Below are positions 4,662 to 62,766 of a stretch of DNA of 64,000 nucleotides, one piece after another (positions within the stretch are counted from its first letter, which is position 1; every line of letters starts with the position of its first letter). The notes under the pieces are model-generated. The model was not told the origin of the DNA. It searched no databases and was given only the letters and a program-made list of their open reading frames with translations. This stretch comes from a virus: IMG/VR virus record IMGVR_UViG_3300025137_000023, positions 1 to 64,000 of that record, one strand, 5' to 3'. The position numbers and the translations under genes were made by a program.

Positions 4662-5123
4662 TTAATCCTTCTTGTAATCATACTCTATTTGTGAACCATT
4701 TTCCCCGTCTTCACTAACTTCGATTTTCACAGAACGTTCGGGGTAACGTTCGCTAATTTGTTTAAATAGGTCATCACTTATCATTTCGCAAGACTTATAA
4801 TCAAGTTGTATAACATCTTCTTTATATAAGTTTTCTAACCAACGTTTAAATTGTATAAACTCTATATCTCTATCATCATGGAATACTTCGATAGCCACTT
4901 TAAAATGAAATATATGTCTATGCGGGTATCCTAAAAAACTAACATCATATTCGTCGCCAGTTGCTAGTTTAGGATCTTCTAATGCCGCAGGGTATTTATG
5001 AATACCTTCTTTTTTAAATGTTACCCAAATCATCTTACTTGAGTTTTGTAACTGCTTCTCTGTTGCGTCTTTAATAGCCGCCGCTCTCATTTCACTTATC
5101 ATATAATTATAATATTGCCCCAT
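4662..5123 (-). CDS. QueD-like T-fold protein, non-canonical (LxxxHRHxF; DpdL-like candidate)
   Basis: FLGYPHRHIF in place of QueD CxxxHGH; SCEMI and VSEDGENG correspond to QueD TAEN and VxET. Confidence 0.7.
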   Translation of the reverse strand: MGQYYNYMISEMRAAAIKDATEKQLQNSSKMIWVTFKKEGIHKYPAALEDPKLATGDEYDVSFLGYPHRHIFHFKVAIEVFHDDRDIEFIQFKRWLENLYKEDVIQLDYKSCEMISDDLFKQISERYPERSVKIEVSEDGENGSQIEYDYKKD

Positions 5124-5154
5124 CCATATTGACCTTTACAGTTGTTATTGTTAC

Positions 5155-5183
5155 AGTATACATAAAAACTCTAGTAAAGTCAA
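5155..5183 (-). promoter_or_regulatory. sigma70 promoter TTGACT-17-TATACT
   Basis: near-consensus hexamers upstream of the QueD-like gene. Confidence 0.65.
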
Positions 5184-5356
5184 GATTTACTTTTACTTAT
5201 TAACTCTTTAATTCTTAATTTTTCTTTCTTAAGTGCCAACAATTCTGATTTGCTTTTCCAACCTCTGTCGCCATTTCTAAGTTGTTCTGCTTCAGTTACT
5301 TGTCTTTTTAGATCTTTATGTTGTTTTCTAAGATCATCTGTTGTAGTTGCTATCAT
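5180..5356 (-). CDS. 58-aa coiled-coil protein, DUF465/YdcH-like (not in ORF track)
   Basis: translated by hand: MIATTTDDLRKQHKDLKRQV...LLALKKEKLRIKELISKSKS; GGAG RBS. Confidence 0.65.
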   Translation of the reverse strand: MIATTTDDLRKQHKDLKRQVTEAEQLRNGDRGWKSKSELLALKKEKLRIKELISKSKS

Positions 5357-5373
5357 TGTTTCCTCCTTAGGAT

Positions 5374-5928
5374 TTATTCAATGAATGTATCACCTGTGTA
5401 CTTGTCCCAATCCGAAAAGAATCGAGATTGTATAGCATCATCTAATGGCATACACCATACACCTGGATTTGTCTTGTTAAAGTCTACATCATCGAATTTT
5501 ATTGTGGCATTATGGCTATTCATATTCCATTGTTTCCAATAACCAAGTTTCAAACTCATCATAGGAATAAACTTCCTACTTTCAGTCCAGCCCATTTGTA
5601 ACATATCGTTACCATAAGTCATTAAATCAAAGTCTAGTGTTACCCACATATGAGCATCTAATAGACCTTTAATATAAGTGTCCCATGTCTTCCAGTCTTC
5701 GTCTGTTTTAGGAACAAACGTTGTGCCAGTTCCTAAATAGATATGAAATAGTTGAAGGTCTTTTGCATGATCCAAAGTTTTTTGTAAATCTTGTATACCA
5801 CATACAAACAAAGTTTGTTTACCATACATAGGAGTCTTCTCAACTTCTTTGTTCATAAAGAACTTTGCTTTATCAGTTGTAATAGTTCCACCGTCTTTAG
5901 TAGAATATGTTCTCATCATTTGTTTCAT
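5374..5928 (-). CDS. conserved hypothetical protein in the deazaguanine cluster
   Basis: ORF coupled to the MDR gene; motifs TLFV, HIY, DD.DF..TNPGVWC. Confidence 0.7.
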   Translation of the reverse strand: MKQMMRTYSTKDGGTITTDKAKFFMNKEVEKTPMYGKQTLFVCGIQDLQKTLDHAKDLQLFHIYLGTGTTFVPKTDEDWKTWDTYIKGLLDAHMWVTLDFDLMTYGNDMLQMGWTESRKFIPMMSLKLGYWKQWNMNSHNATIKFDDVDFNKTNPGVWCMPLDDAIQSRFFSDWDKYTGDTFIE

Positions 5929-6890
5929 GTGTTACCCTCTTGTTGCTTAACAATAGCCTGAGCTCGTTGCTCTTCGTATATCTTAAACATATGTTTCTCC
6001 CAAGTAATATAACCTCTGCTATATCCTATAGGTCTTTCTGAACCATCTTTAAATGCATTCTTCCAATCTATTTCTCTACTATAACTCTTTGTCCAAAAAC
6101 TATTAACATTTAATATACCATTAAAAATCATATTAACTGCATCTGTCATACAAAAATGAAAGTTTGGACTTCTAGGACTTGGAAATACCATACTTGCATT
6201 CTTCCAAAGTAAATTACTAAACGTTGTAGTGATACCTTTTTTCTCTGCCGCTAATACTACAGTTGCATTTTCATTTAATATATCTTGATCAAATACAAGT
6301 GTACTATCATCTTTTAAATCAATTACGATATCATACTTGCCATCGGGTTTATCCATTAACCTATCTTCCCAAAACTTTCTATTACTAGAACCTATTACAT
6401 TTATTTGATAGTTTGTATCTAAAGAATGTAACTTTTTGTATACCACTGTTGCTAGAAAGCCACTACCAATAATTAAAATACGTGGATCTTTAAGAATGTT
6501 TAGTTTGTCTATAATAGACATAACAATATTAAGACCACAAGCCACAGGCTCTACAATGTATTTAGGTTCAGCAGTAGGTACCTTTACATATTCCTGAGTT
6601 CTTACATTATAGTAATCAGCATAAGCAGGTTCACCTCTAGTAGCAACAAAGTCTCCTATACTAACATCATTAATATCTTTTCCTACCTTAGTTACTTGTC
6701 CTAGTCCTTCGTGTCCTTGCATATGTATTGGTAATGGACCAAAATTTCCATGCATCATATCAATATCACTTCTACAAACTCCAGTCATTAATGCCTTAAC
6801 TTCTATTTCACTAGAATTTATATCTGGCTTATTCCATTCGACTTCTTCGAATTTACCATTACCTGTTGTTTGTAATAGTTTTACTAACAT
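5925..6890 (-). CDS. Zn-dependent medium-chain (sugar/polyol) dehydrogenase
   Basis: GVCRSD, GHEGLGQV..VG, EPVAC and IIGSGF Rossmann motifs; probable start MLVKLLQT. Confidence 0.85.
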   Translation of the reverse strand: MLVKLLQTTGNGKFEEVEWNKPDINSSEIEVKALMTGVCRSDIDMMHGNFGPLPIHMQGHEGLGQVTKVGKDINDVSIGDFVATRGEPAYADYYNVRTQEYVKVPTAEPKYIVEPVACGLNIVMSIIDKLNILKDPRILIIGSGFLATVVYKKLHSLDTNYQINVIGSSNRKFWEDRLMDKPDGKYDIVIDLKDDSTLVFDQDILNENATVVLAAEKKGITTTFSNLLWKNASMVFPSPRSPNFHFCMTDAVNMIFNGILNVNSFWTKSYSREIDWKNAFKDGSERPIGYSRGYITWEKHMFKIYEEQRAQAIVKQQEGNT

Positions 6891-7759
6891 AGTTCTTCCA
6901 TTTGTTCGTGTATCCACATATCTTTTTTAAATTGATCTTCCCAATAAGTATCATTATGCAGGTTTTTCAGTCCAATGTCAATCATTCTTTTATATGCATC
7001 TTCTGGACATAACCCTAATTCTACACGTTCTACGTTACCTAGTATCTCAAAGTTCATACCAATATCATCATATAAATCAGTTTTCCAGTTAGCGATTAGG
7101 TTGTAATCGCAGAACTTTGTTTTAAATGTCATACCTGCTTCATCATCTACATCATATATACCTAAAGGATCTGCTACGCCGTAATCTGTATCAAGTAGTT
7201 CTTTTAATTTCCAATTACTTTTTGCTATCTTATCTGATGGAGGTGTTGTTTCGTAATTAGGATTGAATACTTGATACAGACTTAACAAGTGAGGAAGTAG
7301 GTCTCTACTTACACCACCGTATGCTAATTCTTTTGTTGTAAACCAAGAACCTGGATTAGGTACTCTATTTTTATTACACCAATTAATATCTACAACTCTA
7401 CTAGTTCTTGCCATATTGGCATACTCGTCAATGTTGTGTCTATATTGATTGTTCTTAACCATAGAGATTCTACACTCTGGAAAGTCATAATGTAAATCTG
7501 CCCATGCTTTACTAGATTCTAGTCCGGGCTTTTCAATAAACATTAAATGACACCATGGTGCAATAAATCTTGCTATGTCTTCGTGTGTATCATTTGGTGT
7601 ACAGATATGTACTGTATCATACATATCAATTGGAACTTCTTCAATAGTTCTAAAGTTTGCTGGTCTTTTAGGATCTACTGTTACAACGTCAATACCCATT
7701 TCTGTAAGTACTTTCATGTACAGTTGCCCTATACCCATTCCAACTATTAAACTTCTCAT
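6884..7759 (-). CDS. Gfo/Idh/MocA-family NAD(P) oxidoreductase
   Basis: IVGMGIG, VHICTPNDTH, IEKP and GG...DL.PH motifs; probable start MRSLIVG. Confidence 0.85.
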   Translation of the reverse strand: MRSLIVGMGIGQLYMKVLTEMGIDVVTVDPKRPANFRTIEEVPIDMYDTVHICTPNDTHEDIARFIAPWCHLMFIEKPGLESSKAWADLHYDFPECRISMVKNNQYRHNIDEYANMARTSRVVDINWCNKNRVPNPGSWFTTKELAYGGVSRDLLPHLLSLYQVFNPNYETTPPSDKIAKSNWKLKELLDTDYGVADPLGIYDVDDEAGMTFKTKFCDYNLIANWKTDLYDDIGMNFEILGNVERVELGLCPEDAYKRMIDIGLKNLHNDTYWEDQFKKDMWIHEQMEELC

Positions 7760-7766
7760 AATTTTC

Positions 7767-9230
7767 CTATGTAAATAAATTACTAAATTGTGCAGAACTG
7801 TTAACTGTCTTTTTGCCAACTGCTCCACGTGTACCAACGACTTTCATCCATAGTTTAGTATGTTCGTCGATAAGTGCTAGTGCTTTTTCTTTGCTATCTA
7901 ATTCAAATACTCTTGCAATAACATCTTTAACTTCACGTTTGTCAAATGTATCGTCTACAAGCATATTAGGATAATTGCCTTTATCATATTCTTGATTAGC
8001 AATCTGTACACTATTAATATGTGTGTATACGTTATGATTCATCATTAATGCATATGCAAAACTATCCCAACTAGTTTTAGTACTGACACCCATTCTGTTT
8101 ACATCATTAGGACCATATATACAAATATCATTTGCTTTTAATCCTTTTGTAATAGGAGTAGGCATCCATGTATGTCCATCTACTTGACTGAAATGTGCAT
8201 CACATAATTCATCATATGGAAACGTTTGTGTACTGTATGCTTTGTCATCTGGTGCACTAGACATCATATAACTCCACTTTTCATCTTGTACAGTTCTGTG
8301 TCCTGTATAAACTTGACCATTAGCAGTACATAGAAACGGACTAGCACAATCAAATGTTACAGTAAAGTTTTCATTATGATTCTTTCTAATACCACGTTGT
8401 ATTGCAGTAAGTACTAATGCCCATTCTAATTTACTTGTACCTAAGAAGTGCATTACATCATGTTTACCTTTTTCAAGTAAACCATCAAAACGAAGTTCTA
8501 CTACACGTTTCAATGCAAGATGTAAGTCACACATATTTTGTCCACCCATTGCCCAGCCATTAAAGTGTGCGTCAGGATATACTTTAGGATCACAATAGTG
8601 TTTCATCTGATTGTACCAATCATCTGCTTGTTGAAAGTTTTCACCTTGTAATACGTTTAAGAACTTACAATTACCATTTCTGTTCTTAATAAAATATTCG
8701 TTATTTTGTTGTGTGCCTTCTACTGCTTCTTGATACGAACTAATCTTACTTGCCGCGGCTCCTTCTGGAGAACGAGAAACCCAAGCCGGAATATCTAAAA
8801 TCATTCCGTAGTCCATAAATTTATCCATCCATCTTAAAACACCATCACGTTTTTTCTGTGCTTGTGGACAGCCACTGCCTTTACGCCAATCGCCTTCCCA
8901 CTTACCTTTACCAATCTGGAAGCCACCTGAATCACCAAGTAACCAACTAGTGTTTTTATCACGAACACGATACATATCTTCACGATACATATCCTTTACT
9001 AAATCTAGACTGGCGTGTCCTGCCGAGTGTAAACTCCACTTGTAACGCCATAAGCCCTCTGGTGCCAACCAGTTAATACTTTCTACGCCATGTTGTAAGA
9101 AACTTGGAACACGATTATAATCAATATACTCGTGTCTACGTTGCCTACCTACAAATAATGCATAAAAGGTACTGAGTGCCGGCAAAAAGAGTGCATAGTC
9201 TTTTTGTTCAGATGTAAGGTCTAGTTTCAT
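7767..9230 (-). CDS. TGT-fold DNA guanine transglycosylase (DpdA-like)
   Basis: DSGGFQ, ILDIP, LNVLQG, GWAMGG, HFLG and TFD motifs of the TGT barrel; no obvious CxCxxC Zn site of tRNA TGT; adjacent to clamp, polymerase and folE. Confidence 0.75.
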   Translation of the reverse strand: MKLDLTSEQKDYALFLPALSTFYALFVGRQRRHEYIDYNRVPSFLQHGVESINWLAPEGLWRYKWSLHSAGHASLDLVKDMYREDMYRVRDKNTSWLLGDSGGFQIGKGKWEGDWRKGSGCPQAQKKRDGVLRWMDKFMDYGMILDIPAWVSRSPEGAAASKISSYQEAVEGTQQNNEYFIKNRNGNCKFLNVLQGENFQQADDWYNQMKHYCDPKVYPDAHFNGWAMGGQNMCDLHLALKRVVELRFDGLLEKGKHDVMHFLGTSKLEWALVLTAIQRGIRKNHNENFTVTFDCASPFLCTANGQVYTGHRTVQDEKWSYMMSSAPDDKAYSTQTFPYDELCDAHFSQVDGHTWMPTPITKGLKANDICIYGPNDVNRMGVSTKTSWDSFAYALMMNHNVYTHINSVQIANQEYDKGNYPNMLVDDTFDKREVKDVIARVFELDSKEKALALIDEHTKLWMKVVGTRGAVGKKTVNSSAQFSNLFT

Positions 9231-9242
9231 TAACTAACCCCT

Positions 9243-9974
9243 CTATTTAGATTGTGCTGGAAGGATATAATCGTAAGCAATCATTCCGCTGTCTACAGAA
9301 ATCATACTAGCACCCTCATCTGAGAATCGCATAGTAATCTCGCCTGGAAGACTTAGAATACTAATTACTTGTTGCACGGGCCACTGCCAACCATGTTTCA
9401 ATGTACCAGTAATATCTGGTTGAAAAACAAAGTTACCTGCGTGTGTGCTATGGTCACCAAAGTAAAACTTTAAGTTGCCATCTTCTGTTTTAGCGATAAA
9501 AGTAGTTTCTTCGCTATGTACCTGTGCCTGCATCTTCAGTCTTTGTACTGCCGCTACAGTAGGTTTAATTTCAACGTTCCAGTTAACGCCTTTAAACTTA
9601 ACAGTCTTAAGTTTATCATTAATAACTTCGCTTGTCATAAAACGATAGTCATTTTTAAAGTCGCCTCTTACGTTTTCAAAATACAATCCAACTGGCACTT
9701 CTGCACCGTTACGTTCTTGTTTGCTGATTGTAATTTTTGCATCTTCCTTATATTCTTGAATACCAAGTAAGATTGCTAGTTTGCTTAAATTCGGCATACC
9801 GAATGTTCCCATAAACTCTGCGTATGGGCTTTTTAGTTTAGCCTGTACAATAACACTTCTGTCATCTGCTAAACCTTCAATATTTGTTTCAGTATCACTA
9901 CCGTTAACTTTAATTAAATCAATAAAGCCTAGGCTGTGTGTATGCTGAACAATATCATTTAGATAGTCTTTCAT
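9243..9974 (-). CDS. DNA polymerase sliding clamp (gp45/PCNA-like)
   Basis: 243 aa beta-rich protein ending YDYILPA; directly downstream of PolB. Confidence 0.6.
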   Translation of the reverse strand: MKDYLNDIVQHTHSLGFIDLIKVNGSDTETNIEGLADDRSVIVQAKLKSPYAEFMGTFGMPNLSKLAILLGIQEYKEDAKITISKQERNGAEVPVGLYFENVRGDFKNDYRFMTSEVINDKLKTVKFKGVNWNVEIKPTVAAVQRLKMQAQVHSEETTFIAKTEDGNLKFYFGDHSTHAGNFVFQPDITGTLKHGWQWPVQQVISILSLPGEITMRFSDEGASMISVDSGMIAYDYILPAQSK

Positions 9975-10001
9975 TATAATACTCCATCAGTTAATGTTAC
10001 A

Positions 10002-10030
10002 ATTATACTAATATTTAGGTTCAAAGTCAA
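10002..10030 (-). promoter_or_regulatory. sigma70 promoter TTGACT-17-TATAAT with an embedded TAAATA late motif
   Basis: drives the clamp-DpdA-oxidoreductase operon. Confidence 0.7.
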
Positions 10031-10037
10031 GTGCTTT

Positions 10038-12698
10038 CTACTCAAAACTAAATAAATCGTTAAATTTAGTAGCAGTATTAGAGTCTAACGTTAGATCCCA
10101 CTCTAAAACATCTAGTAAATTGTTAATCTTACTGTCAATTACTGTACTTTCCATAGCACCATCATCAAACGGTAATTCTTTAAACCACTGAGGTAAATGA
10201 GGTTCATCTGTTGGATAAGCCACACTAGTATAACCCAGTGGATTTGCCTTTAGTTTACAAACAATAACTTTAGCACCATCTTTAATTTCTGTGCTATACC
10301 TGTCACTGTTCATTTTACGCAATCTATTCCAGTTCATACTTGCTCTAACGTGTCCTGGCATATTTGCTTTCCCAAGTCTTTCTTCAAGTGCTTGAAACTT
10401 TGTCATATTGTTAGCACGTCTTGGACTTCCTTTTTCCCAAGCCGGACGTAACATAAATTCTTCTTTAAATACTTTTACTTTTTCAAGTGTTTCATCTCTA
10501 CCAAGTCCAGTAAGTACACCTTGTAACACATCACTTAAAAAGTTCTGTACAATCTTAGGTGTATCCGAACGTTTAAGATCAAGTCCCATTGCTTTAATCT
10601 TACCTGGACTATCTCCTGTATCTGTTCTGTAACCTTCCATGTCATAGATTAGAACTGCATATCTTTTCTTTGTAATAAACAATCCTTTAGTAGCAACCAT
10701 TTCTCTACCACCAACAATAATCTCTCCATTCTCTCTAGGAGCATTAAAAGCCTTTTTCATAAAGTTAGGAAAACTCTGGTTAACATTATCTGCAATTTGA
10801 TCATACAATGCAATACAAGTTTCTTTGTTCCATTCTAGTTCACCCTTTTCAACTTTGTCTTTAAGTACGGGCCATGCACTAAAATAAGCAGAGTCAGTAT
10901 CACCATATATAATAGTTTTACCTCTGTGATCATATTCACCTGTCAGACATTCATTAACATATGCGTCCATGTGTTTAGCAATACTTCTACCACATAGTGT
11001 TGTACTCTGACCAATACGTTTATCAAAGAATCTACAACCAGGATTAAGAATTGCACCATATAAACTGTTCAAGTTAATCTTTTTAACAAGTTGTCTTTTA
11101 TCCCAGAACTGTTTTTCTTCTGGAGAAGTTGCACTTGCTTTTACTTTTTGTATGTCTTGTCTTTCTCTATACCAACGTGCTAGTAGTCCAGGAACAACTC
11201 CTTCTTTCTCTGAATTAAAGATTGTACCATTTGCACTTAACATCCACGGTTTGTTACTTAAAAATATAAGTTTATAGATTTCTTTACCAGACATTATATC
11301 ATGAGAACCATCTTCCCACTCGAGAACTATTTCTTTATCAATGTCTTGTGCCATAACTAATTCATATTCAATACTACCAAACATACCTTCCCAAGCATCT
11401 GCAAACGACTTTTTATCATCCATACTACTTTTGACGTGTGTGTTTGTATAGTCAGGACGTAACTGTCCTACAATAGTTTCGTTTCCCATATTAAGGGCTC
11501 TAATAGCCGAAGGATACAAACTGTTAATATCAATACTACCTATCCAATCATGCAATCCTTTTTGAGGATATGCCACGTAAGCACCAGCCGCCTGTGTATG
11601 TCCAAGTTCATCTCTACTCTTACGACTTGGTACTACTAGTCCTTGTTCGTGTGCTTCATTAATAATTGCTTGTTCTGTAACTGCAACTGCACCCATTGTT
11701 GTTTGTAATAACACTGTATTAGAGTGTGCTAGTTCACTACTCAATTCCATAAACTTTAGTTTCTTATCAAGTTTATCTAGTAGTGCAGTATCCTGTCTGG
11801 AGTAATCAATAAACTTTTCAAAGTCATTGTTATATAACTGATCAAGTGTTCCTTCATACTGAACCTTACGTTCATCTAGTTCGTATTCACCGATAGCATC
11901 TAAACTGTAACTGTGCATTTCATGATATGTATATTTTCTATACAGTTGCATATAGTCCATATGCACTCTTCCAATAGTATCAAATGTTAATGTTTCTGCA
12001 CCAAATCTTTCAAACGTTCTTGGCTTAGGATATGCTCCCCATAAACAAAAACGTCTTGTATCATCTTTACTTAACACACGTTTAACTCTGTTTACTAGAT
12101 AAGGAATATCATAACCTTCACTGTTCCATCCTGATAAAATATCAGCATCATCAATTAGTGTTAAGAATGTATCAAGTAATTGCGACTCTTCTTCAAAGAA
12201 GAAACAGTTTTCAAACTTCTCACATATCTTTGTGGATTCTTCTTTATCCATATACTTAGGTGGAATAGCCAACGTAATAAGTTGATCAGTCCATTGCAAG
12301 TATAAAGATATAGCAGTTACAGGATTAAAAGGATCTTCCGGAGGACTAAATCCACGTTCGCTGTCAAAGTCAACCTCAATATCAAAGAAACAAGTATTCA
12401 GTTTCGGTGCATCTTGCCCGAGGTAGTTTTCTTCTAATATGCGGAATACAGGATTAAAATCACTTTCATAAAGTTTCTTTTTGCCTACGAGCTTTAGTTC
12501 TCTACGGAAGTCTTTAATTGTACGGCATTGAATCCTGCTTACAGGATTGCCGTGAATACTTTTATGCTTTCCTTTCGGATCGTCATAGTAAAATATATAT
12601 TTTGCGGGATAATCACGATACTCTCTTTTACCGTGTTTGTTTCGTTCTACGATTTGTATTAAGTCTTTTTCTCTGTCAAAGAGTGCGTCAACGTACAT
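10038..12698 (-). CDS. family B DNA polymerase (gp43-like)
   Basis: exonuclease motifs DIE, GWNSEGYD, YSLD; polymerase motifs DINSLYPS, KINLNSLYG, YGDTDS, KKRY. Confidence 0.97.
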   Translation of the reverse strand: MYVDALFDREKDLIQIVERNKHGKREYRDYPAKYIFYYDDPKGKHKSIHGNPVSRIQCRTIKDFRRELKLVGKKKLYESDFNPVFRILEENYLGQDAPKLNTCFFDIEVDFDSERGFSPPEDPFNPVTAISLYLQWTDQLITLAIPPKYMDKEESTKICEKFENCFFFEEESQLLDTFLTLIDDADILSGWNSEGYDIPYLVNRVKRVLSKDDTRRFCLWGAYPKPRTFERFGAETLTFDTIGRVHMDYMQLYRKYTYHEMHSYSLDAIGEYELDERKVQYEGTLDQLYNNDFEKFIDYSRQDTALLDKLDKKLKFMELSSELAHSNTVLLQTTMGAVAVTEQAIINEAHEQGLVVPSRKSRDELGHTQAAGAYVAYPQKGLHDWIGSIDINSLYPSAIRALNMGNETIVGQLRPDYTNTHVKSSMDDKKSFADAWEGMFGSIEYELVMAQDIDKEIVLEWEDGSHDIMSGKEIYKLIFLSNKPWMLSANGTIFNSEKEGVVPGLLARWYRERQDIQKVKASATSPEEKQFWDKRQLVKKINLNSLYGAILNPGCRFFDKRIGQSTTLCGRSIAKHMDAYVNECLTGEYDHRGKTIIYGDTDSAYFSAWPVLKDKVEKGELEWNKETCIALYDQIADNVNQSFPNFMKKAFNAPRENGEIIVGGREMVATKGLFITKKRYAVLIYDMEGYRTDTGDSPGKIKAMGLDLKRSDTPKIVQNFLSDVLQGVLTGLGRDETLEKVKVFKEEFMLRPAWEKGSPRRANNMTKFQALEERLGKANMPGHVRASMNWNRLRKMNSDRYSTEIKDGAKVIVCKLKANPLGYTSVAYPTDEPHLPQWFKELPFDDGAMESTVIDSKINNLLDVLEWDLTLDSNTATKFNDLFSFE

Positions 12699-12743
12699 TT
12701 CTATTTCCTTGTTCTTATGGCGAACATTGCCTTGTTACTTGCT

Positions 12744-12989
12744 CTATTGAGCGATAAAGTTTTCAATTATGCCAATTAAATAAATTATTGTTAAGCCTGC
12801 ATTTAAAACAATCAACGACTTTTCTTTCCAAAGTACACCAACTAGTACCCAAATTAGGTTTGCTAGTGTAAATGCATAACTATACCAAGGGTATATGTTA
12901 AAACTTGCCATTGTTGCCGCTACTAAAAGTATTGCAGTTCCTGTCCATGCTACCCACTGATGTGGTTTAGCAATTTCTGTCGTATTCAT
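12744..12989 (-). CDS. 3-TM membrane protein
   Basis: paralog of 868..1182. Confidence 0.65.
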   Translation of the reverse strand: MNTTEIAKPHQWVAWTGTAILLVAATMASFNIYPWYSYAFTLANLIWVLVGVLWKEKSLIVLNAGLTIIYLIGIIENFIAQ

Positions 12990-13143
12990 TTTTATCTATC
13001 ATTTCTAATACTACTGCATCCATTTTAGCATCTTTGTATAAAATGTCAACCGTTTCCATTAAGTTTGGATATGTTTTTTCATACAAATAAATTGTTGCTT
13101 CTTGTGTGCCTCTAGTTACTATTGCCTTATAATATTCTGCCAT
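12967..13143 (-). CDS. hypothetical protein
   Basis: ORF; probable start MAEYYK. Confidence 0.5.
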   Translation of the reverse strand: MAEYYKAIVTRGTQEATIYLYEKTYPNLMETVDILYKDAKMDAVVLEMIDKNEYDRNC

Positions 13144-13183
13144 AATGTGCCTAAGTGATAGGGGTGTTGCCACCCCTATACTA

Positions 13184-13726: not shown

Positions 13727-13752
13727 ATCGTCGTCCTATTGTTAGGTTATTA

Positions 13753-14034
13753 TTACCACCAATTTGCCGCTATACCATAACCAAATATGTTTACTAAACT
13801 AAAATAGAATGTAAGTACAGTAACCCAAGCGGCTCCTCTGCGTATTGATGAATAACACTGAGTAACGGATCCTACAAAGAATCCAGGATATACTATTAAC
13901 ATATTTGGATCTCTGGCATTGAATGCCAAAGTTAAACTAGCACCTACTGTAAATACAAAACTTACTAGTTCAAAGTAGAATGCAATTTTATCACTATTAT
14001 AAGAGGTAGCCCAAAAGGCTTTAATCTTCTCCAA
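13753..14034 (-). CDS. 3-TM membrane protein
   Basis: three hydrophobic segments. Confidence 0.6.
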   Translation of the reverse strand: MEKIKAFWATSYNSDKIAFYFELVSFVFTVGASLTLAFNARDPNMLIVYPGFFVGSVTQCYSSIRRGAAWVTVLTFYFSLVNIFGYGIAANWW

Positions 14035-14316: not shown

Positions 14317-14396
14317 AATTTCTCCTATCTAGTCATTAGATTGTTGATGTATTAGTTATTATAATACACTAAATGGGAGTGGTTGTCAACCGTATT

Positions 14397-52204: not shown

Positions 52205-52278
52205 AGAAACTCCGTGAATTAATTATAAGTTATTATAATATATTCAAGTGTCTAAAGTCAAGTAAAAAGTAAGATTTA

Positions 52279-53022: not shown

Positions 53023-53072
53023 ATTTCTTAAACTCCGTATTACTTTTGTAATATATATTTATTTATCATTTA

Positions 53073-55439: not shown

Positions 55440-55473
55440 GATTTATCCTTAAATTACACTAGTATTTAGCAGA

Positions 55474-57189
55474 TTACAGTGCCGCTATTCTCGACTGGAA
55501 GTCAGCAAAGTCTGAACTCGCCGCCACAGTTGATTTTAATGTCGCTAAAGTAATCGTCTCAACGTTTGTAAGTCCACTTCCATCTCCAACAAAATTAGTT
55601 ACTGATAGTGTTTCAGTACTAGCATTATATGTGTATGCACTTCCATCTGTTTTAACTGTTAAGGCGCCTATTTGTCCTGTTCCAAACATTGGAAAACAAG
55701 TTGTGTCTGAACTTTCATCACCTACATTAACGCCGTCAGCATAGTCACCTGCATTGGCTAACTTTATCCAGTTACCACCATGTGCAAAATAACCTGCTCC
55801 AGTGCCATGTACGTGAGCAAACATACCGTGATATGTAGTTGCATTTGGTAAATCCGCTTCTGCAGAATACATATTTGAATATAAAATTTTACCTGTAGTA
55901 GTAATATTAAATGCTTGAGCATCTAAGTTACCACCAAGTTGTGGTGTTGTATCTGATACAACACTTGCAATACCGCCATCGGTTATTCCATAACCTGCTA
56001 TTGTAGTTGGCTTACCTGTTAAACTTGCGAATGATTGTGCCGGAACACTTGTTAAGTAAGTTCCTAAATCACTAATTTGTGATTCTGTAATACTTAATGA
56101 CGCTTGGTGTTGTGTTACTGCACTTGCTGGAACATTTGCATCTGGAATGTTTGCCCATGTTACTGCCGCAGTTAAATCGTTTACTTCTGAACCACCGCCA
56201 ACTGTGCCTGGTTCCCATTCTAAATTACTATTGTTCCAAACTAGTGCTTGTCCATTAGTTGGAGGTGTTGTTGAAGTATCAACATCACTTAAATTATTAA
56301 TGCCTGTTGGAATGTCAGATATAAATGCTACTGTACCACTTGCATTTTTAAATGAGATTGTATTATCCTGTGTAGGATTTACTACAGTTACAATAGTTTC
56401 GTGTGCATCAGCAGTACTTCCTTCAAATGTAATTTGGTTGTTAACTAAAACATCATTTGTTTCTAAAGTAGTTGTTGTACCTTGTACAACTAAATCGCCC
56501 GTTACAGTTAAGTTTTGAACGTTACTAGGGCCAGTTGCAGTTAAGTTAACAGTCGTTATGTTAGTATTGTTTACGTCACTAGCAATAGTACTGTTTACTG
56601 TTCCAGTAAATGTACCTGTAATAGTTCCACTAGCGTCAATGTTTGTTGTGTTTAATGTTCCCCAACGATTACTTACTGCACCTAAATTTTGTGTAGTACT
56701 AACTGGAAGAAAATCCGTTGCCGCTTTGGCATTGTAAGTAACTGTATCTGTATTAGCATTACCTAGTACAGTATTACCTGATATACTTACAGTTGCTAGT
56801 GTTGTTGAGCCTGAAACTTTTGCATCACCTGTTACATCAAGTGCTACTGTAGGAGCATTATTTTTAATACCAACAAACCCGCTACTTCCTTTAACATATA
56901 AAACATCACTTGCTAAATCTGTGTTAACAGTAAAATTAAAATTACCGTTATCTGGATTTATGATGGTATCACCGGCTACTTTAAAAGCGCCTGTATCTGC
57001 AGGATCTATGATAACATCAGTTGTACCAACAATACTGTTGGCAGTAATATTTAAATTACTGTTAACTGCGCCATATGTCCATATGTCGTCAAAGTTTAAG
57101 TTTATTTTTTCAAATGCCGAACGAAGTAAGTCGCCTGTACCGTCGTCTGCGTTTGTTCCTATATTAATTACTCTTTTAGTTCCAGCCAT
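55474..57189 (-). CDS. tail fibre / baseplate-attached fibre
   Basis: INIG..ADDGTGD.LR.AF.KIN N-terminus; TPQLGGNLD and L.DVD...GQALVW fibre modules. Confidence 0.8.
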   Translation of the reverse strand: MAGTKRVINIGTNADDGTGDLLRSAFEKINLNFDDIWTYGAVNSNLNITANSIVGTTDVIIDPADTGAFKVAGDTIINPDNGNFNFTVNTDLASDVLYVKGSSGFVGIKNNAPTVALDVTGDAKVSGSTTLATVSISGNTVLGNANTDTVTYNAKAATDFLPVSTTQNLGAVSNRWGTLNTTNIDASGTITGTFTGTVNSTIASDVNNTNITTVNLTATGPSNVQNLTVTGDLVVQGTTTTLETNDVLVNNQITFEGSTADAHETIVTVVNPTQDNTISFKNASGTVAFISDIPTGINNLSDVDTSTTPPTNGQALVWNNSNLEWEPGTVGGGSEVNDLTAAVTWANIPDANVPASAVTQHQASLSITESQISDLGTYLTSVPAQSFASLTGKPTTIAGYGITDGGIASVVSDTTPQLGGNLDAQAFNITTTGKILYSNMYSAEADLPNATTYHGMFAHVHGTGAGYFAHGGNWIKLANAGDYADGVNVGDESSDTTCFPMFGTGQIGALTVKTDGSAYTYNASTETLSVTNFVGDGSGLTNVETITLATLKSTVAASSDFADFQSRIAAL

Positions 57190-57203
57190 AACCTATTCTC
57201 CTA

Positions 57204-57896
57204 TTACCAAGTTGATACTAATACACGTTTCCAAATGTCAGCACTGCCGTCATGTGTTCCTGTGCAATAGTATATGTAACTTGAATCAAAGGCTACATCT
57301 CCATTAATATCACCTGCGGCTCCTTTAGCCGTTGCTGGTGTATATGTTGTAGAAACATTTATTCTGTCGCCTGATGCCGTTAATTTTGTTCCAAAGATCC
57401 CACGCCATACGTTTGCCGCTGATCCTAAATCTTTTGTGTTTGTTGCATTACTTAAAATGTGACCTGAAACGTTAACTTCGCCACCACCTGGTACTAAATT
57501 AATGTCGTTTGCTGTCGCTGTCAATGTAGTTGTAGTACCGTTAATTACTAGGTCGCCCATAGTAACTGTTGTACCGTCATCAACTACAGAACTTACTACT
57601 ACATTACCACTTGCATCAAACTTTAAGATTGAATTGTCAGTGTGTGTAGTAAACTGTAAATTTTTGGAAGTGTCAACAATGATTGCACCTGTACCGTTCG
57701 GACTTAATGTAATATTTCCGTTAGTATCATCTGATCCAATAGTATTACCTGAAATGCTGATATTACTTAAACTTGATCCACCTAATTCTGTATAGACTTC
57801 AGTGAAGTTTTCGTTAATCTTATTAAAGGCAGTTCTTAAAGGATCACCTGCGCCATCATTTGCACTGCTTCCAATGTTAATTGCTTGTTTCGCCAT
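57204..57896 (-). CDS. baseplate/fibre connector (gp9/gp10-like N-terminus)
   Basis: MAKQAINIG..ANDG.GDPLRTAF.KIN.NF.EVY. Confidence 0.75.
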   Translation of the reverse strand: MAKQAINIGSSANDGAGDPLRTAFNKINENFTEVYTELGGSSLSNISISGNTIGSDDTNGNITLSPNGTGAIIVDTSKNLQFTTHTDNSILKFDASGNVVVSSVVDDGTTVTMGDLVINGTTTTLTATANDINLVPGGGEVNVSGHILSNATNTKDLGSAANVWRGIFGTKLTASGDRINVSTTYTPATAKGAAGDINGDVAFDSSYIYYCTGTHDGSADIWKRVLVSTW

Positions 57897-57987
57897 TGTT
57901 ATAACTCCTGCAGATTATATAATTTTGTCTACAAGTATTTATCCATCTTATTCAATAGCCGAATGCTAATAACGAATAAATACTTGT

Positions 57988-58266
57988 ATGTATTTAGGTT
58001 ATACATTTATTAAACAGTGGCATCAACGACAGCAGAAATCAGTCAAACGTAATCTTCAAGTTTACGCCTTAATGTGTGATAATTGTTTCAACCTTTTCTT
58101 AAGAAGTTCAAAAAACATTAGCAAAAGTCGATTAAACAGATGGGTTAATCATTACTGCGGATCCTGTGGAGACGTTTATAAACTTGCACAAAAAGATAGT
58201 GCATTACGAAAGAGGACATTAAAATATGACGCGAGTTCAACAATGCCTATTAATCGTTTGCGTTAG
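57988..58266 (+). CDS. small Zn-ribbon protein
   Basis: CDNC...YCGSC; ATAAATA immediately upstream. Confidence 0.55.
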   Translation: MYLGYTFIKQWHQRQQKSVKRNLQVYALMCDNCFNLFLRSSKNISKSRLNRWVNHYCGSCGDVYKLAQKDSALRKRTLKYDASSTMPINRLR

Positions 58267-59317
58267 TTTCTTTACATTTTGTGGCTGGACTTCAGTTGCA
58301 AATAGTAGTTTACCAAACATTGAAAATAATTTACATTCAACTGTTTTAGTTGCTACTAAAAATGTAACACCGAGACTGGACGAAACTACACATAATATGG
58401 CTCCGGTTCCAGCACCGGATATTACGAATCCTGGAATGGGAACAGGTATTATTATGACTGATAAAGGTCATATTATTACTAACTACCATGTTGTTGAAAA
58501 GGGCAATACAATTTCTGTATGGATGTATGAAGATGAAACTATGACAGAATATGATGCAACTATCGTGGGCTTCGATAAACTGTCTGATATAGCAGTTATT
58601 AAAATTGATTTACCAAAAGATTACAATTTTAAAAAAGTAGAATGGGGAAGATCACCTGATTATGGTGATGATATCTATGTAATAGGGCATCCACAAGGAA
58701 TGATATGGAGTGTGAGTAAAGGAGTTGTTAGTCATCCTAAAAGATTTGTAACATCACCTTGGCAAACACTTATTCAATCTGATGCTTTAATAATGCCTGG
58801 TAATAGTGGCGGTCCACTCTTTGACCACCATGGTGATTTAGTAGGTATAAACACTCTTATGATTTTGAGTCGTGATCCAACTGCCAAGACCCAAGCATGG
58901 GCAATGAGTATTCATTTAGATGATGTGAGATGGGTTTACGACAGAATAATTGAGTACGGTAGAGTACGAAGACCTGCTTTAAACATCGAAGTTGATTTCG
59001 ACGTTGAGAATAAGTTGGTAAAAATAAAGGCTGGACCGGACACCGCATTAGGAAAGTTAGGAATGAAAGAATCTTATCTTTTAGAAATTGACGGAATAGA
59101 GGTCAAAGAATATGGCGACATCTTTAATTACTTAAGAAGTAAATTAGATGGGGATACTGCTATTATTAAGGTTAAAGAGTTAGAATCAGGAGAGGTTAAG
59201 TCGCTAACATTCAAATTAGCGGATTGGGAGGCTTTACAGTCTAATAAGGAAAAAGATAAAGTGTTGGAGAAAGAAGAGGAACTAGAAATACCACATGGTA
59301 TTCCTTCGCCTAAGTAG
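58226..59317 (+). CDS. HtrA/DegP-family serine protease with degenerate PDZ
   Basis: GTG.I, TNYHVV, SDIAVIK and IQSDA.I.PGNSGGPL motifs. Confidence 0.92.
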   Translation: MTRVQQCLLIVCVSFFTFCGWTSVANSSLPNIENNLHSTVLVATKNVTPRLDETTHNMAPVPAPDITNPGMGTGIIMTDKGHIITNYHVVEKGNTISVWMYEDETMTEYDATIVGFDKLSDIAVIKIDLPKDYNFKKVEWGRSPDYGDDIYVIGHPQGMIWSVSKGVVSHPKRFVTSPWQTLIQSDALIMPGNSGGPLFDHHGDLVGINTLMILSRDPTAKTQAWAMSIHLDDVRWVYDRIIEYGRVRRPALNIEVDFDVENKLVKIKAGPDTALGKLGMKESYLLEIDGIEVKEYGDIFNYLRSKLDGDTAIIKVKELESGEVKSLTFKLADWEALQSNKEKDKVLEKEEELEIPHGIPSPK

Positions 59318-59320
59318 AAT

Positions 59321-59656
59321 TTAAAATCCTACAGATTCTCCACAACCACAAGAACTAGTGGCTTGGGGGTTTTCGATTACAATTTGAGAGCCTCCAAAGT
59401 CTTCTTTGAAGTCTATTACACAACCCATAAGATAAAATAAACTTACACCATCAATAATTAAATTTTTAACTTCATTTAATTTTATTAAGTGATCTTTAGG
59501 ATTGATTTCTTCTGTTTTGATTGTAGACCAGTCGTATTTGAATCCTGCACAACCTCCACCTTTAACTCCAAAGTGTACATTCGTGGCATCATTCTTATCA
59601 GCCATTGTAATTAAATAATCTTTAGCGGAATCTGTGATAGTCGGTAACATATTCAT
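59321..59656 (-). CDS. A-type Fe-S carrier (HesB/IscA/ErpA)
   Basis: GGGCAGF.Y and NP.A.SSCGCGES motifs. Confidence 0.93.
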   Translation of the reverse strand: MNMLPTITDSAKDYLITMADKNDATNVHFGVKGGGCAGFKYDWSTIKTEEINPKDHLIKLNEVKNLIIDGVSLFYLMGCVIDFKEDFGGSQIVIENPQATSSCGCGESVGF

Positions 59657-60050
59657 CTTCTCCTGTGTCTCCGTCTAGGTTAAGTGTCATTTGTGCTAGT
59701 TCACTCATTTGTGATGGGCTAAACGTAGGTTCAAATGTCATCTCAACTTCTACTTCGTTAATACCAGGTACTTTTAATAATGCTTCTTTTGTCCATATTG
59801 GCATTTCGCCTGCTACTGGACAAAAAGGACTTGTAAGTGTCATAAGTGTAATACATTTACCATCTATAACATCACAATGATATATTAATCCTAGCTCAAA
59901 TATATTTATACTGATTTCGGGATCGTATACTTCGCGAAGTTCTTTTTTTATGTCTTCTTGTTTTACGTTTTTATCTTGAATTTCTAGATTAAAACTTCCG
60001 TCTTCAGACGCACTACGGTTAAAATCTTTTACTGCAATAGTACTGCTCAT
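59622..60050 (-). CDS. SufT / DUF59 Fe-S assembly protein
   Basis: VYDPEI.INIFELGLIY and MTLTSP.CP motifs. Confidence 0.9.
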   Translation of the reverse strand: MSSTIAVKDFNRSASEDGSFNLEIQDKNVKQEDIKKELREVYDPEISINIFELGLIYHCDVIDGKCITLMTLTSPFCPVAGEMPIWTKEALLKVPGINEVEVEMTFEPTFSPSQMSELAQMTLNLDGDTGEDEYVTDYHRFR

Positions 60051-60156
60051 ATTTTATAGTTGGCCCTTATAAGGTGTTCCGCAGGCACTCATAAAGCGGT
60101 GCCTGAGGAATTATTGTTGAAATTAAACTTGCCTTGTATTAGGCGTTGGCGAGATG

Positions 60157-60318
60157 CTAACCTTTTTTATAGATTTGCCATGCTCCGTAACCTATGGCTA
60201 CATAAGCCGCCAATTTAGCAAAAGGTCCAGCAATTAGAACTATTACTCCAATAGCGACTAGAGCCGCTCCAGAGTGAGACGTTCTTTCTTTTACTCTCTC
60301 TTTTATCCAATTTGTCAT
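60157..60318 (-). CDS. 53-aa 2-TM protein (not in ORF track)
   Basis: MTNWIKERVKERTSHSGAALVAIGVIVLIAGPFAKLAAYVAIGYGAWQIYKKG; GGAG RBS. Confidence 0.65.
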   Translation of the reverse strand: MTNWIKERVKERTSHSGAALVAIGVIVLIAGPFAKLAAYVAIGYGAWQIYKKG

Positions 60319-60349
60319 TTATTTGTCTCCTTATTAAATGGTATCACTA

Positions 60350-60583
60350 TTACTTTCTAGTAAAAATGTGATACAACACCCAAATTGCTACTAAACCTAC
60401 TAAACCATTTGCTGAAAAACCAGCAATGATATTTTGTATATTTGCAATAACTCCGATGTTTGGCCAGAACGGTATGTTCTGTCCGTTAAAAAGTACTTCT
60501 AGTACGACTCCTACAGATATTAAACTAATACCTGCTTCTGTTAGAGCGCCTGCCCATCCTTTTACTTTGTTAAGTATGTCCAT
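60350..60583 (-). CDS. small membrane protein
   Basis: GGAG RBS; two hydrophobic segments. Confidence 0.65.
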   Translation of the reverse strand: MDILNKVKGWAGALTEAGISLISVGVVLEVLFNGQNIPFWPNIGVIANIQNIIAGFSANGLVGLVAIWVLYHIFTRK

Positions 60584-60598
60584 ATTTGACTCCTTTTG

Positions 60599-60820
60599 TT
60601 ATTTGTGTCGATAACTGATTCGTCCTTTATGCATATCATAAGGACTCAGTTCTATGTCAACTCTGTCTCCCAACAATACTTTAATATTGTTTTTTCGCAT
60701 TTTCCCGTTAAGGTGTGCGACAATGGAAACGTTATGTCCGTCGACTTTTACTTTGAAGAGAGTGTTTGGCAATAGTTGTTCAACTACACCCTCCACTTTG
60801 ATTGTGCTATCTTTTGCCAT
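60599..60820 (-). CDS. infA: translation initiation factor IF-1
   Basis: MAK...I.VEG.V...LPN..F.V, GKMRKN.I.VL.GDRV..ELSPYD..KGRI.YR. Confidence 0.95.
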   Translation of the reverse strand: MAKDSTIKVEGVVEQLLPNTLFKVKVDGHNVSIVAHLNGKMRKNNIKVLLGDRVDIELSPYDMHKGRISYRHK

Positions 60821-60837
60821 GTGTAGTATTTATCGGT

Positions 60838-61275
60838 TTAACGCCTCATTCTTGCCAATTCCTTGGCATCTTCGTCGCTAAATACGGGCACTAGATTGCT
60901 TTTGTGCATAGTTGCTATGCCTAACAAACGTCTTTCACCACTATATTGCATAGGTTTTCTTGCCTTGCATGGTGCAAACGTTTTTTCTGAAATAACACTA
61001 GGATAATCTGCAATAGTTTCTCTTTTATAGTCTCCTGCAGACTCGTGCCATGGTGTATTCAAAACTGGTTGTGTTTTTGGTTTATAGTTACCTTGTGTGT
61101 AATCTGTGTATTCTTTTAAATTCATTACTAAATTAGGACACCCAAGTTTTTTCATATACTTGTTGTGTTCTCGCATTTGTACTTCAAGTTTTGAAATCTT
61201 ACTTTCGGTAAGTTTTTTCTTTTTTCTTTTTTTAGTATTTAGAGTTGTAAGTCCTCTATCTAAATGCATTGTCAT
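60838..61275 (-). CDS. conserved T4-like hypothetical protein
   Basis: YSG...LGIATMHKSNLVPV motif. Confidence 0.7.
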   Translation of the reverse strand: MTMHLDRGLTTLNTKKRKKKKLTESKISKLEVQMREHNKYMKKLGCPNLVMNLKEYTDYTQGNYKPKTQPVLNTPWHESAGDYKRETIADYPSVISEKTFAPCKARKPMQYSGERRLLGIATMHKSNLVPVFSDEDAKELARMRR

Positions 61276-62288
61276 TTGGCGTTCCTGTTTGTTGCTTTAA
61301 GTTTATCGATACAAAATTTGTTACATATTACAGATTGTCTATTGTCTATAATATCTGATAGTCTCTTATTATACCATGAATTTGATAAAATGTCAAGTAA
61401 CTTGTGGTTGTATATGTTATTTTCTTGTGGATTAAATCCTGGCAAATCCATAGGTTCTGCACCGGCTTCAGGAGCCCTAGCGGCTGTCCAACAACAGGGC
61501 CATATAGTTCCCCAAGGATCTACTTGTATTCTCATATCGTCATACCATGCACAAGGAGTATCAAAATTTGCTTTCTCTGGTACAGGGTAATTTTTATATG
61601 TATTTTTCTTAAATTCTACTAACTTTGATTTAAAGTTTCTAACTTTTTTATGTGTAACTTGATAACTTTTATCTTGTACTGTTAGTGTTTTGTTTCTATC
61701 AAAACTGGGTCTAATATAATGTGTATAAGCACCTAATTCTTTTGCTAGTTCGGTAATTTTATCTAGTTGTTCTAAGTTATGATCAAATGCAGTTGTAATA
61801 ACTTCAGCAACTCCGCCGGCATTAGTAAATGCTTTAATATTTTCGCATATCTTTTTAAAACTTGTATTACGTCTATATAAATGATGTGTATCCTCTAAAC
61901 CATCAATAGCAAATTCAATCTTATGTGAATGTGCTTGTTGTAATACACTAGAAAGTTCTATCCACCAATTTTTATCTCGCATACTACCATTTGTAGCAAT
62001 ACCAATAGATGTTTTAGGATGATTGTTTACAATACTTTTACAGATGGAAATAAAGTCAGGGTGCATACAAGCATCTCCCCAAACTCCGTTGAAATGAACT
62101 TTTTTAAATAAAAATCCTTTAGTATCCTCGGACATAACTCTGTCCCATATTTTAGGATCTAAATGATTTAGTTTTAAACTTGGGATCGTGTCCCCGCCGT
62201 CTATGTTTCTTACACAACTAACACACTTGGCGTTACAATAACTAGTAGGATCTACTTGTATAAATTGAACACGTTCTGACCATTGCAT
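61272..62288 (-). CDS. radical SAM enzyme with Twitch/SPASM domain
   Basis: CNAKCVSC, TNG, IDG...H..YR and C...I.VD..G...PCC motifs. Confidence 0.9.
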   Translation of the reverse strand: MQWSERVQFIQVDPTSYCNAKCVSCVRNIDGGDTIPSLKLNHLDPKIWDRVMSEDTKGFLFKKVHFNGVWGDACMHPDFISICKSIVNNHPKTSIGIATNGSMRDKNWWIELSSVLQQAHSHKIEFAIDGLEDTHHLYRRNTSFKKICENIKAFTNAGGVAEVITTAFDHNLEQLDKITELAKELGAYTHYIRPSFDRNKTLTVQDKSYQVTHKKVRNFKSKLVEFKKNTYKNYPVPEKANFDTPCAWYDDMRIQVDPWGTIWPCCWTAARAPEAGAEPMDLPGFNPQENNIYNHKLLDILSNSWYNKRLSDIIDNRQSVICNKFCIDKLKATNRNAK

Positions 62289-62575
62289 TACTCAACTTCG
62301 GCCCACTCTTTTTCTTCCTGTTCTTTGTTAGAGTCTTTACCTAATTCTTTTATTTTCTTCACATCACCTGATCCTAGAGCTCTAAAGAATTGCCCTATTG
62401 CAGTAGTTGTGGGATCGTATTTGTTAGGTATCGAACAACCAACTAGTGCTACAAGTATTAATACTACTACAACACCTTTAAAGAAAGAAACCCACATAAA
62501 ACCATAATTTGTCATTCCGAATGCGTCTTGCATTCTTGCTATGTGTTTTTTATGCCATTCGATAAATTTCTTCAT
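62288..62575 (-). CDS. membrane protein / lipoprotein
   Basis: hydrophobic stretch ending LVGC. Confidence 0.55.
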   Translation of the reverse strand: MKKFIEWHKKHIARMQDAFGMTNYGFMWVSFFKGVVVVLILVALVGCSIPNKYDPTTTAIGQFFRALGSGDVKKIKELGKDSNKEQEEKEWAEVE

Positions 62576-62577
62576 AA

Positions 62578-62766
62578 TTACTCAATCGGTTTTTTAATCG
62601 TTTCTGCACCTGATCGAATCTTTGCCGCAAACTCAGGATCATTCTCTAGATCCTTTCTCATACGTTTAGCCATTTTATAAGCCTTTCGAGCATTTTCTCT
62701 TCTTACTGCTCTACTTTCGTTATTTTCGGCTTTCGACTGCATAAAGTCGCCTACTTTATTGAACAT
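62578..62766 (-). CDS. small basic hypothetical protein
   Basis: ORF in the operon. Confidence 0.5.
   Translation of the reverse strand: MFNKVGDFMQSKAENNESRAVRRENARKAYKMAKRMRKDLENDPEFAAKIRSGAETIKKPIE

Follow-up and report, generated by a model that had tools for sequence, protein, structure and literature searches.

Complete absence of GCWGC from a fragment of an uncultured jumbo phage and its probable relation to host restriction

The DNA analyzed here, referred to as the window, comprises bases 1-64000 of the IMG/VR virus record IMGVR_UViG_3300025137_000023, a linear sequence of 83,290 bp with a CheckV completeness of 24%. The G+C content of the window is 34.6%, and 123 of the 136 crudely called open reading frames (ORFs) lie on the minus strand; among the genes is that of a family B DNA polymerase of 886 aa (10038..12698, minus strand), which was used as the marker gene for finding relatives. 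The feature of interest is a missing word, given that the window (1..64000) is free of GCWGC (GCAGC and GCTGC), and that the purge runs on to the end of the record. In the following, the record itself is labelled G000, the contigs of its relatives G001-G006, and the related loci are given L numbers.

Counts of GCWGC and recoding of alanine pairs

In the window GCAGC and GCTGC are both found 0 times, whereas GCGGC is found 16 times and GCCGC 50 times, i.e. 66 GCSGC. The initial annotation had claimed a complete absence of GCWGC for the range 4981..62630, which holds 0 GCWGC and 61 GCSGC; the same counts for the whole record are 0 and 72, and the absence is therefore stronger than claimed. Dinucleotide-preserving shuffles of the window (n=100) gave an expectation of 49.51 sites (sd 6.40), and a maximal-order Markov model of the record predicted 47. 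Synonymous-codon shuffles, which keep the proteins and the codon usage, were run on the 136 ORFs (77,715 nt). Drawing the codons from a genome-wide pool gave a mean of 62.7 sites (sd 4.0, minimum 51, n=500), shuffling within each gene gave 56.7 (sd 4.1, minimum 44, n=500), and a repeat of the codon shuffle gave 56.2 (sd 4.3, minimum 47, n=300). The exact count against a shuffled expectation, proposed earlier as a check, is thus 0 vs 49.5 (dinucleotide) and 56-63 (synonymous codon). Most of the expected sites (48.9) would fall at Ala-Ala pairs read as GCW GCN, and 3.8 and 3.5 in the other two frames. GCSGC within the ORFs is enriched, with 70 copies vs 18-25 expected from the codon shuffles.

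The way in which the sites were lost can be read from the alanine codons. The suggestion that the first codon of Ala-Ala pairs is forced to GCG or GCC proved true in 67 of 67 cases: in the whole record, the Ala codon placed before GCN is GCG 48 times, GCC 19 times, and GCA or GCT 0 times (45 GCG and 18 GCC in the window only). Before other codons starting with G, the Ala codons are GCA (278), GCT (83), GCC (34) and GCG (13), so that 361 of these 408 end in A or T. All seven Ala-Ala examples named in the initial annotation read GCS-GC on the coding strand; for instance, the Ala-Ala-Ala at the start of ORF 4662..5123 is encoded as GCG GCG GCT (5077..5084, minus strand), the same coding-strand sequence occurs in the Ala-Ala run at 23076..23083 (minus strand), and a gene on the plus strand carries the pair GCC GCC (43889..43893). 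The GCG:GCC ratio in Ala-Ala pairs (48:19) and the GCA:GCT ratio elsewhere (895:359) are both 2.5, as one transition per ancestral site, GCA to GCG or GCT to GCC, would give.

The polymerase alignment shows the same change at a single position. At the Ala-Ala pair of column 369, GCG/GCC-GCN is present in 7 of 7 rows without GCWGC in the gene, which are six rows of the clade of the window and L029, and the five rows whose gene does contain GCWGC all have GCA/GCT-GCN. The Ala-Ala of these five GCWGC-bearing rows at columns 470 and 785 corresponds, in the clade of the window, to GK/GA and AS, respectively. In addition, the proteins of the record contain 67 Ala-Ala dipeptides vs 93 (sd 8.7) in residue shuffles. 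Given this deficit and the replaced polymerase pairs, amino-acid replacement in the proteins seems to account for a minority of the lost sites.

Distribution among relatives and other avoided words

A megablast search with 20 kb of the record yielded no DNA-level match to named phages, and the best polymerase identity to named jumbo phages (Phosso, Atu_ph07, and E. coli jumbo phages) is at most 49%; in consequence, there is no cultured relative or host to borrow. Related polymerases are encoded in at least 600 IMG/VR stretches, among them G006, a record of 316 kb with a completeness of 91%. The lack of a DNA match to named phages, the low polymerase identity and the jumbo size of relatives together indicate that the window belongs to the genome of an uncultured jumbo phage.

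The loss of GCWGC extends to several of these relatives. G001 (80 kb, polymerase identity 94%), G003 (38 kb, 86%) and G002 (83 kb, 72%) carry 0 GCWGC vs 48, 19 and 51 expected, respectively, which together with the record itself amounts to 0 sites in 284 kb vs about 165 expected. In G004 (40 kb, about 70%) 3 sites were observed vs 25 expected, 3 of 3 being G-flanked, and in G005 (26 kb, 79%) 14 vs 18, of which 13 are G-flanked. The trait is dependent on the lineage: G006, with a polymerase identity of 67%, holds 815 GCWGC vs 845 expected, as opposed to 0 in G000-G003. The initial claim of strong selection against GCWGC is thus backed by the counts, by the recoding, and by the comparison with relatives.

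To describe this distribution we call a locus purged when unflanked GCWGC is gone, absolute when the G-flanked copies are gone too, and conditional when only GGCWGC or GCWGCC are left. In the polymerase tree the window falls within a fully supported clade of 11 rows, in which unflanked GCWGC is lost in every testable member; other purged lineages are scattered over the remainder of the tree, and at least 7-8 changes of the trait are needed on it, as counted with an earlier three-class labelling. Of 80 polymerase loci 71 were testable, and these include 23 purged (5 absolute, 14 conditional and 4 too short), 21 weakly depleted and 27 unaffected loci. Among the HNH loci, 63 of 71 were testable, and the corresponding figures are 39 purged (20 absolute, 15 conditional and 4 too short), 6 weakly depleted and 18 unaffected. 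The window is an absolute case, with 0 G-flanked GCWGC vs 14.4 (codon shuffles) to 20 (Markov simulation) expected.

GCWGC is one of about 15 words purged in the record, and the fate of the others depends on their flanks. We consider a site to be shielded when A or G follows a G that is located inside it or directly 5' of it on either strand; the expectations for shielded and unshielded copies were obtained from order-2 Markov simulations. Unshielded copies are absent for AGCT (0 vs 122 expected), CATG (0 vs 78.5), CTWAG (0 vs 47), GCGC (0 vs 23), GCWGC (0 vs 39) and GCWWGC (0 vs 24.7); they are also absent for several hexamers, and CTTAAG, CAATTG and CGCG obey the same rule (expectations of 7-122 across words). 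Regarding the shielded copies, AGCT (33 vs 32) and GCGC (18 vs 12) are not depleted, CATG (154 vs 199) and CTWAG (76 vs 128) persist but below expectation, and GCWGC (0 vs 20) and GCWWGC (0 vs 13.8) have none. A G precedes 33 of 33 AGCT (GAGCT) and 18 of 18 GCGC (GGCGC) on one or both strands, and 154 of 154 CATG read CATGR on at least one strand; the same fractions in G006 are 35%, 45% and 71%. The pattern of the surviving CATG could also be read as that of a plain RCATGY enzyme, the specificity of NspI. CATG is wholly absent from the related and otherwise unremarkable contigs L048 (7.2 kb; 0 copies) and L128 (21 kb; 0 vs 76).

The shield rule is obeyed for other words in G006, namely AAGCTT, GTGCAC, CTGCAG, CACGTG, CAGCTG and CGCG. 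In this genome the unshielded copies of AAGCTT (0 vs 85), GTGCAC (0 vs 73) and CTGCAG (0 vs 57) are missing, AGCGCT, ACGCGT and CACGTG likewise have none, and 21 of 21 GCACGC are G-flanked. TGCA is purged in G002 (L085-L089; 21 vs 210) and G004 (L092-L093; 20 vs 140), and AGCT is kept in G002 (297 vs 427 expected). A rule that holds across the clade together with purged words that differ by lineage fits a conserved phage protection and variable host restriction enzymes; the different sets in G002, G004 and G006 are as changing host enzyme repertoires would produce.

The word GCWWGC (GCAAGC/GCTTGC, GCATGC and GCTAGC) was lost in parallel. It occurs 0 times in G000 vs 24.5 (codon shuffle) to 31 (Markov) expected, and the observed and expected numbers in the relatives are 0 and 16 in G003, 1 and 30 in G002, 3 and 33 in G001, and 406 and 416 in G006; of the 11 surviving copies in G001-G005, 10 are G-flanked. 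GCWWGC as a word was not found in the literature searched. A single agent for GCWGC and GCWWGC was considered and rejected, given that the two purges are separable: L003 lacks GCWWGC only (judged by its total count), and L022, L032 and L067 lack GCWGC only. Cac8I is an enzyme that recognizes GCNNGC, and the idea that GCWWGC represents the unshieldable subset of such an enzyme was also dropped. GCACGC/GCGTGC is near expectation in G000-G005 (10 seen vs about 12 expected) and 10 of 10 copies are G-flanked; since these are kept when G-flanked, and G-flanked GCWWGC is gone in G000, one enzyme cannot explain both.

Candidate genes for guanine modification, nucleases and host hints

Several genes of the record could be related to the flank rule. 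FolE (GTP cyclohydrolase I), the first step of 7-deazaguanine synthesis, is clearly recognizable at 1670..2356 (minus strand; Pfam E 3.6e-37), a radical SAM protein, possibly QueE-like, at 61272..62288 (minus strand; E 2.2e-8), and a QueC-like gene with a partial match at 65553..66140 of the record, past the window end (E 8.8e-11); ORF 4662..5123, which was proposed as QueD-like, has no Pfam match. A protein of 487 aa (7767..9230, minus strand), whose gene adjoins the clamp and polymerase genes and is kept beside the polymerase in 56 of 80 related loci, is a candidate DpdA-like guanine-exchange enzyme. Its family shows a conserved DSGGFQ motif, which we take to be a hallmark of TGT, and 7767..9230 gives a weak tblastn match (22% identity, E 2e-4) to a phage 'TGT domain-containing protein'. 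PF01702 (TGT) was not found in the record, and 1 of 25 members of the 487-aa family matches it, with E 0.25; the profile of the family has no match in PDB, and a phmmer search of 7767..9230 against PDB returned a single match, at chance level (E 0.79). The assignment as a DpdA-like transglycosylase is therefore that of a candidate that passed no significance test.

Judging from the footprint left on the words, the phage clade probably shields guanines placed before a purine, putatively with a 7-deazaguanine base. DpdA of phage CAjan inserts preQ0 at GA and GGC, and such sites are protected while GC and GT sites are cut (PMC7544227); in phage iggy the 7-deazaguanine modification has been reported at GA only (PMC10484667). 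The resemblance to CAjan, known from genes and word counts, is good, and consists in the presence of FolE, QueC-like and radical SAM genes and in surviving words all of which touch a G-purine step. In contrast to CAjan, where GGCC is protected, this word is depleted here, and the candidate transglycosylase is without a significant TGT match.

The initial annotation also raised a phage-encoded nuclease that would cut GCWGC while sparing the phage, and pointed to 14397..15461 and 41410..43027 as its possible genes; the presence of these candidates does not follow the purge. The first one encodes a PD-(D/E)xK-like protein of 354 aa (14397..15461, minus strand) with the motif D168...E177-x-K179 in a beta-hairpin; the three residues are invariant in 13 sequences and are located on modelled strands 169-171 and 174-181. 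No family match was obtained in Pfam or PHROGs, both structural models lacked a Foldseek match at E <= 0.001, and phmmer against PDB gave nothing usable. When compared with VIA-align, the matches of the full model cover the N-terminal helices only, and the core model (pLDDT 86.9) reached a best Z of 4.2, all matches being below Z 5. Type II enzymes are among these weak core matches (Z 3.0-3.8, 94-148 aligned residues), such as HhaI (Z 3.8, 130 residues), MspI (Z 3.7, 147) and HinP1I (Z 3.6, 148), and further ones include the ThaI-like 3ndh, NhoI, NaeI and PvuII, these seven lying at Z 3.1-3.8. Among the named Atlas clusters, three restriction-enzyme families come nearest to it, with scores of 0.79-0.80 that are often at chance level. 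The product is probably a nuclease of the PD-(D/E)xK type.

In the 83 kb that surround this gene no DNA methyltransferase was detected in searches for the C5 and N4/N6 families. Homologues with 57% identity reside in phage DNA with normal GCWGC numbers (L118, 61 observed vs 59 expected; L119, 65 vs 55; L120, 93 vs 84), and the 17 related loci have varied word-avoidance profiles, in some of which GCWGC, AGCT or both are normal. The GCWGC-free G002 gave no tblastn match to the protein in its 83 kb, and the flanking genes match at 12-16 kb. The second region carries two genes. The HNH endonuclease domain protein of 158 aa (41410..41886, minus strand) has homologues in avoiding and non-avoiding phages (32 avoiding, 14 partly avoiding and 19 non-avoiding among 65 loci with enough expected sites). 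For the protein of 382 aa encoded next to it (41879..43027, minus strand), which has no family and is found in one related locus only, phmmer against PDB gave nothing usable, and nothing backs a nuclease role. Restriction-enzyme families were not found among 77 ORFs searched with Pfam and 10 with PHROGs (8 shared), where only the HNH domain and UvdE appeared. The C5, N4/N6 methyltransferase and TGT families were not found in the 83-kb record, and C5 methyltransferases are absent from ten related records too, all of them fragments except G006.

The remaining gene content includes a clamp-loader-like AAA protein, PhoH, and structural or lytic proteins, namely tail-fibre proteins, baseplate proteins like T4 gp9/10 and a lysozyme of the GH108 type; PRPP synthetase, RpiB, UvdE and an ATP-dependent ligase are encoded as well. 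The regions 28630..32232 and 49808..50242 (minus strand) hold genes for a ClpA/B-like ATPase with two rings, a complete DnaJ, and a protein ending in the C-terminal domain of arginyl-tRNA-protein transferase, a set of chaperone and proteolysis functions that is unusual among phages. Three clustered tRNA genes (Gln-TTG, Leu-TAA and Trp-CCA) lie at 63078..63559 (minus strand). Shine-Dalgarno-like words precede 63 of 136 ORF starts vs 9% of control positions, and the type of lysozyme points to a host that is Gram-negative.

Four relatives with 66-69% polymerase identity (L201-L204) are found in bins of metagenome-assembled genomes named as Haliscomenobacter sp. (2), an uncultured Chitinophagales and an uncultured Polynucleobacter; one of the two contigs binned with Haliscomenobacter has a length of 183 kb. 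These are probably phage contigs mis-binned with bacteria. The bin names hint at a freshwater origin and do not give the host itself.

Probable host restriction and alternative explanations

We think it likely that a virulent giant (jumbo) phage lineage eliminated GCWGC because a Type II restriction enzyme of its host cuts it. The counts, the recoding and the pattern in relatives are observed directly; the host enzyme, the modification and the reason for which flank shielding fails are inferred. The host, a Gram-negative and probably freshwater bacterium, would carry an enzyme of the palindrome-reading TseI/ApeKI type, or one of the BbvI type that reads GCAGC. BbvI recognizes GCAGC and cuts at a distance. 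Given that GCAGC and its complement make up the GCWGC set on double-stranded DNA, both types give the same footprint, and with zero sites left the type that acts is not distinguishable from the genome. Most of the purge would have come about by transitions at the third codon position of Ala-Ala pairs (GCA to GCG and GCT to GCC), and a few amino-acid replacements would have added to it. The clade would shield G before a purine, likely with 7-deazaguanine, and copies of other words would persist only in contact with such a step. All guanines of GCWGC, on both strands, precede C, and shielding could come only from a flanking G; in this lineage a G shielded in the flank would be insufficient, and no copy would be tolerated. 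Our guess is that the absolute loss is explained most simply by a host enzyme insensitive to flank modification (e.g. of the BbvI type), or by several enzymes acting together.

This reading agrees with what is known of such systems. TseI recognizes G^CWGC (PMC3643589), and GCWGC methyltransferases are reported to be widespread in bacteria (PMC11347163). They have been described in freshwater Chloroflexi, where M.AbaBS3I was tested with TseI in an assay that agrees with this recognition sequence (PMC6329791), and in Microcystis (PMC4730716). According to the survey by Rusinov et al. (2018, PMC6286503), non-temperate phages avoid orthodox Type II sites, and GCWGC is often under-represented. The avoidance seen here is like that surveyed there in that a Type II word is lost by synonymous recoding, several words are affected, the set varies by relative, and the phage looks non-temperate. 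It is unlike it in that a whole uncultured jumbo-phage clade is involved, with 0 sites in 284 kb; the flank-dependent rule for other words has no counterpart in the passages of that survey considered here. In the literature searched, avoidance of GCWGC in phages was treated only by this survey and by one archaeal review, and nothing was found on under-representation of the TseI site in bacteriophage. If a TseI/ApeKI or BbvI system is responsible, the avoided word is its recognition sequence, and the gene would lie in the host; none is seen in the record.

Other explanations have to be weighed against host restriction at GCWGC. The initial annotation had left the specificity between a TseI/ApeKI-like and a Fnu4HI-like enzyme, and plain GCNGC does not fit, with 72 GCSGC vs 18-25 expected. 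A modified form of the Fnu4HI-like proposal, in which the host enzyme reads GCNGC and GCSGC is safe through a modified internal GG step, is unlikely in our view. Every GCSGC does have an internal G-purine step on one strand, GCSGC is abundant (72), and of about 15 other words the unshielded copies are absent and the shielded copies persist; however, the GCSGC excess is fully explained as a by-product of Ala-Ala recoding, the guanine modification itself is putative, and in a survey of phages with known hosts the share of analysed genomes with under-representation was 66.3% for GCWGC and 22.5% for GCNGC (PMC6286503). Avoidance of modification-dependent enzymes (the BisI family, Type IIM/IV), which would cut the phage DNA in the next host after cytosine methylation of GCWGC by a host methyltransferase, would draw on BisI-family enzymes that cut multiply methylated GCNGC, on the widespread predicted GCWGC methyltransferases (PMC11347163), and on the listing of GCWGC among Type IIM sites (PMC6286503). 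We regard it as very improbable, since the family reads GCNGC and yet GCSGC shows no avoidance, cytosine methylation genes were not found in the record, and the avoidance of such enzymes is only weak in the survey (PMC6286503). Hardly any weight is given to a mutation bias without selection (e.g. deamination of methylated cytosine) or to an artefact of sequencing or assembly, which were considered because GC-rich short words are scarce in AT-rich DNA: 50-63 sites are expected when dinucleotides, codon usage and protein sequence are kept, the changes are third-position W-to-S changes and not the C-to-T of deamination, and a relative of similar composition keeps GCWGC. An assembly artefact was ruled out, because the absence is produced by in-frame synonymous recoding of codons, which an artefact cannot bring about.

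A nuclease of the phage that cuts GCWGC to degrade host DNA, with self-protection through the absence of sites, is somewhat less probable still than an enzyme reading GCNGC, although more probable than avoidance of BisI-like enzymes. The invariant D...ExK motif of the 14397..15461 protein, its weak core structure matches that include many Type II enzymes, the restriction-enzyme families nearest to it in the Atlas and the lack of a DNA methyltransferase family in 83 kb speak for it. Against it count the 57%-identical homologues in GCWGC-rich DNA, the GCWGC-free G002 in which the flanking genes are present and the gene is not matched, the HNH homologues in 19 non-avoiding loci, and structure matches that are all below Z 5. 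Furthermore, about 15 purged words would require many nucleases, which makes self-sparing nucleases an unparsimonious explanation in general; one such enzyme may still lie in the 76% of the genome outside the record. Of the two causes given in the initial annotation, a host restriction-modification system is the best supported, with the enzyme itself only inferred.

Some observations weigh against host restriction as set out above. The cognate restriction enzyme or methyltransferase of the host was neither sought nor found; the record represents 24% of the phage genome, and a phage-borne enzyme could sit in the part that it does not cover. The purge is so common among related aquatic phages that a cause intrinsic to the phages is also conceivable. 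The record has 0 G-flanked copies where 14-20 are expected, though sister lineages keep them (L013, 15 observed vs 21.5 expected; L016, 14 vs 19.4; L003, 13 vs 6.3), and the reason proposed for this is a guess. Finally, GGCC always holds a GG and yet is found 32 times vs 68 expected, 27 of the 32 survivors being GGGCC, which misfits a G-purine shield.

Avoidance of restriction sites by phages is textbook knowledge, and this genome is a very clean case of it, with 0 sites across four diverged relatives, recoding at the codon level, and a near-complete relative that keeps the word. The details that stand out are an absolute purge in spite of the shielding of other words, the loss of GCWWGC in parallel with that of GCWGC, and an orphan nuclease-like gene. 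More tentatively, and with clear doubt, it is possible that the spectrum of purged words reports both the G-purine context of a divergent DpdA-like enzyme and the restriction specificities of uncultured freshwater hosts; in such a case the total loss of GCWGC would mark a flank-insensitive enzyme, and the loss of GCWWGC an undescribed specificity. The purged words, together with the flank rule of the survivors, would then be a readout that predicts the enzymes of the hosts and the context in which the phage modifies its DNA.

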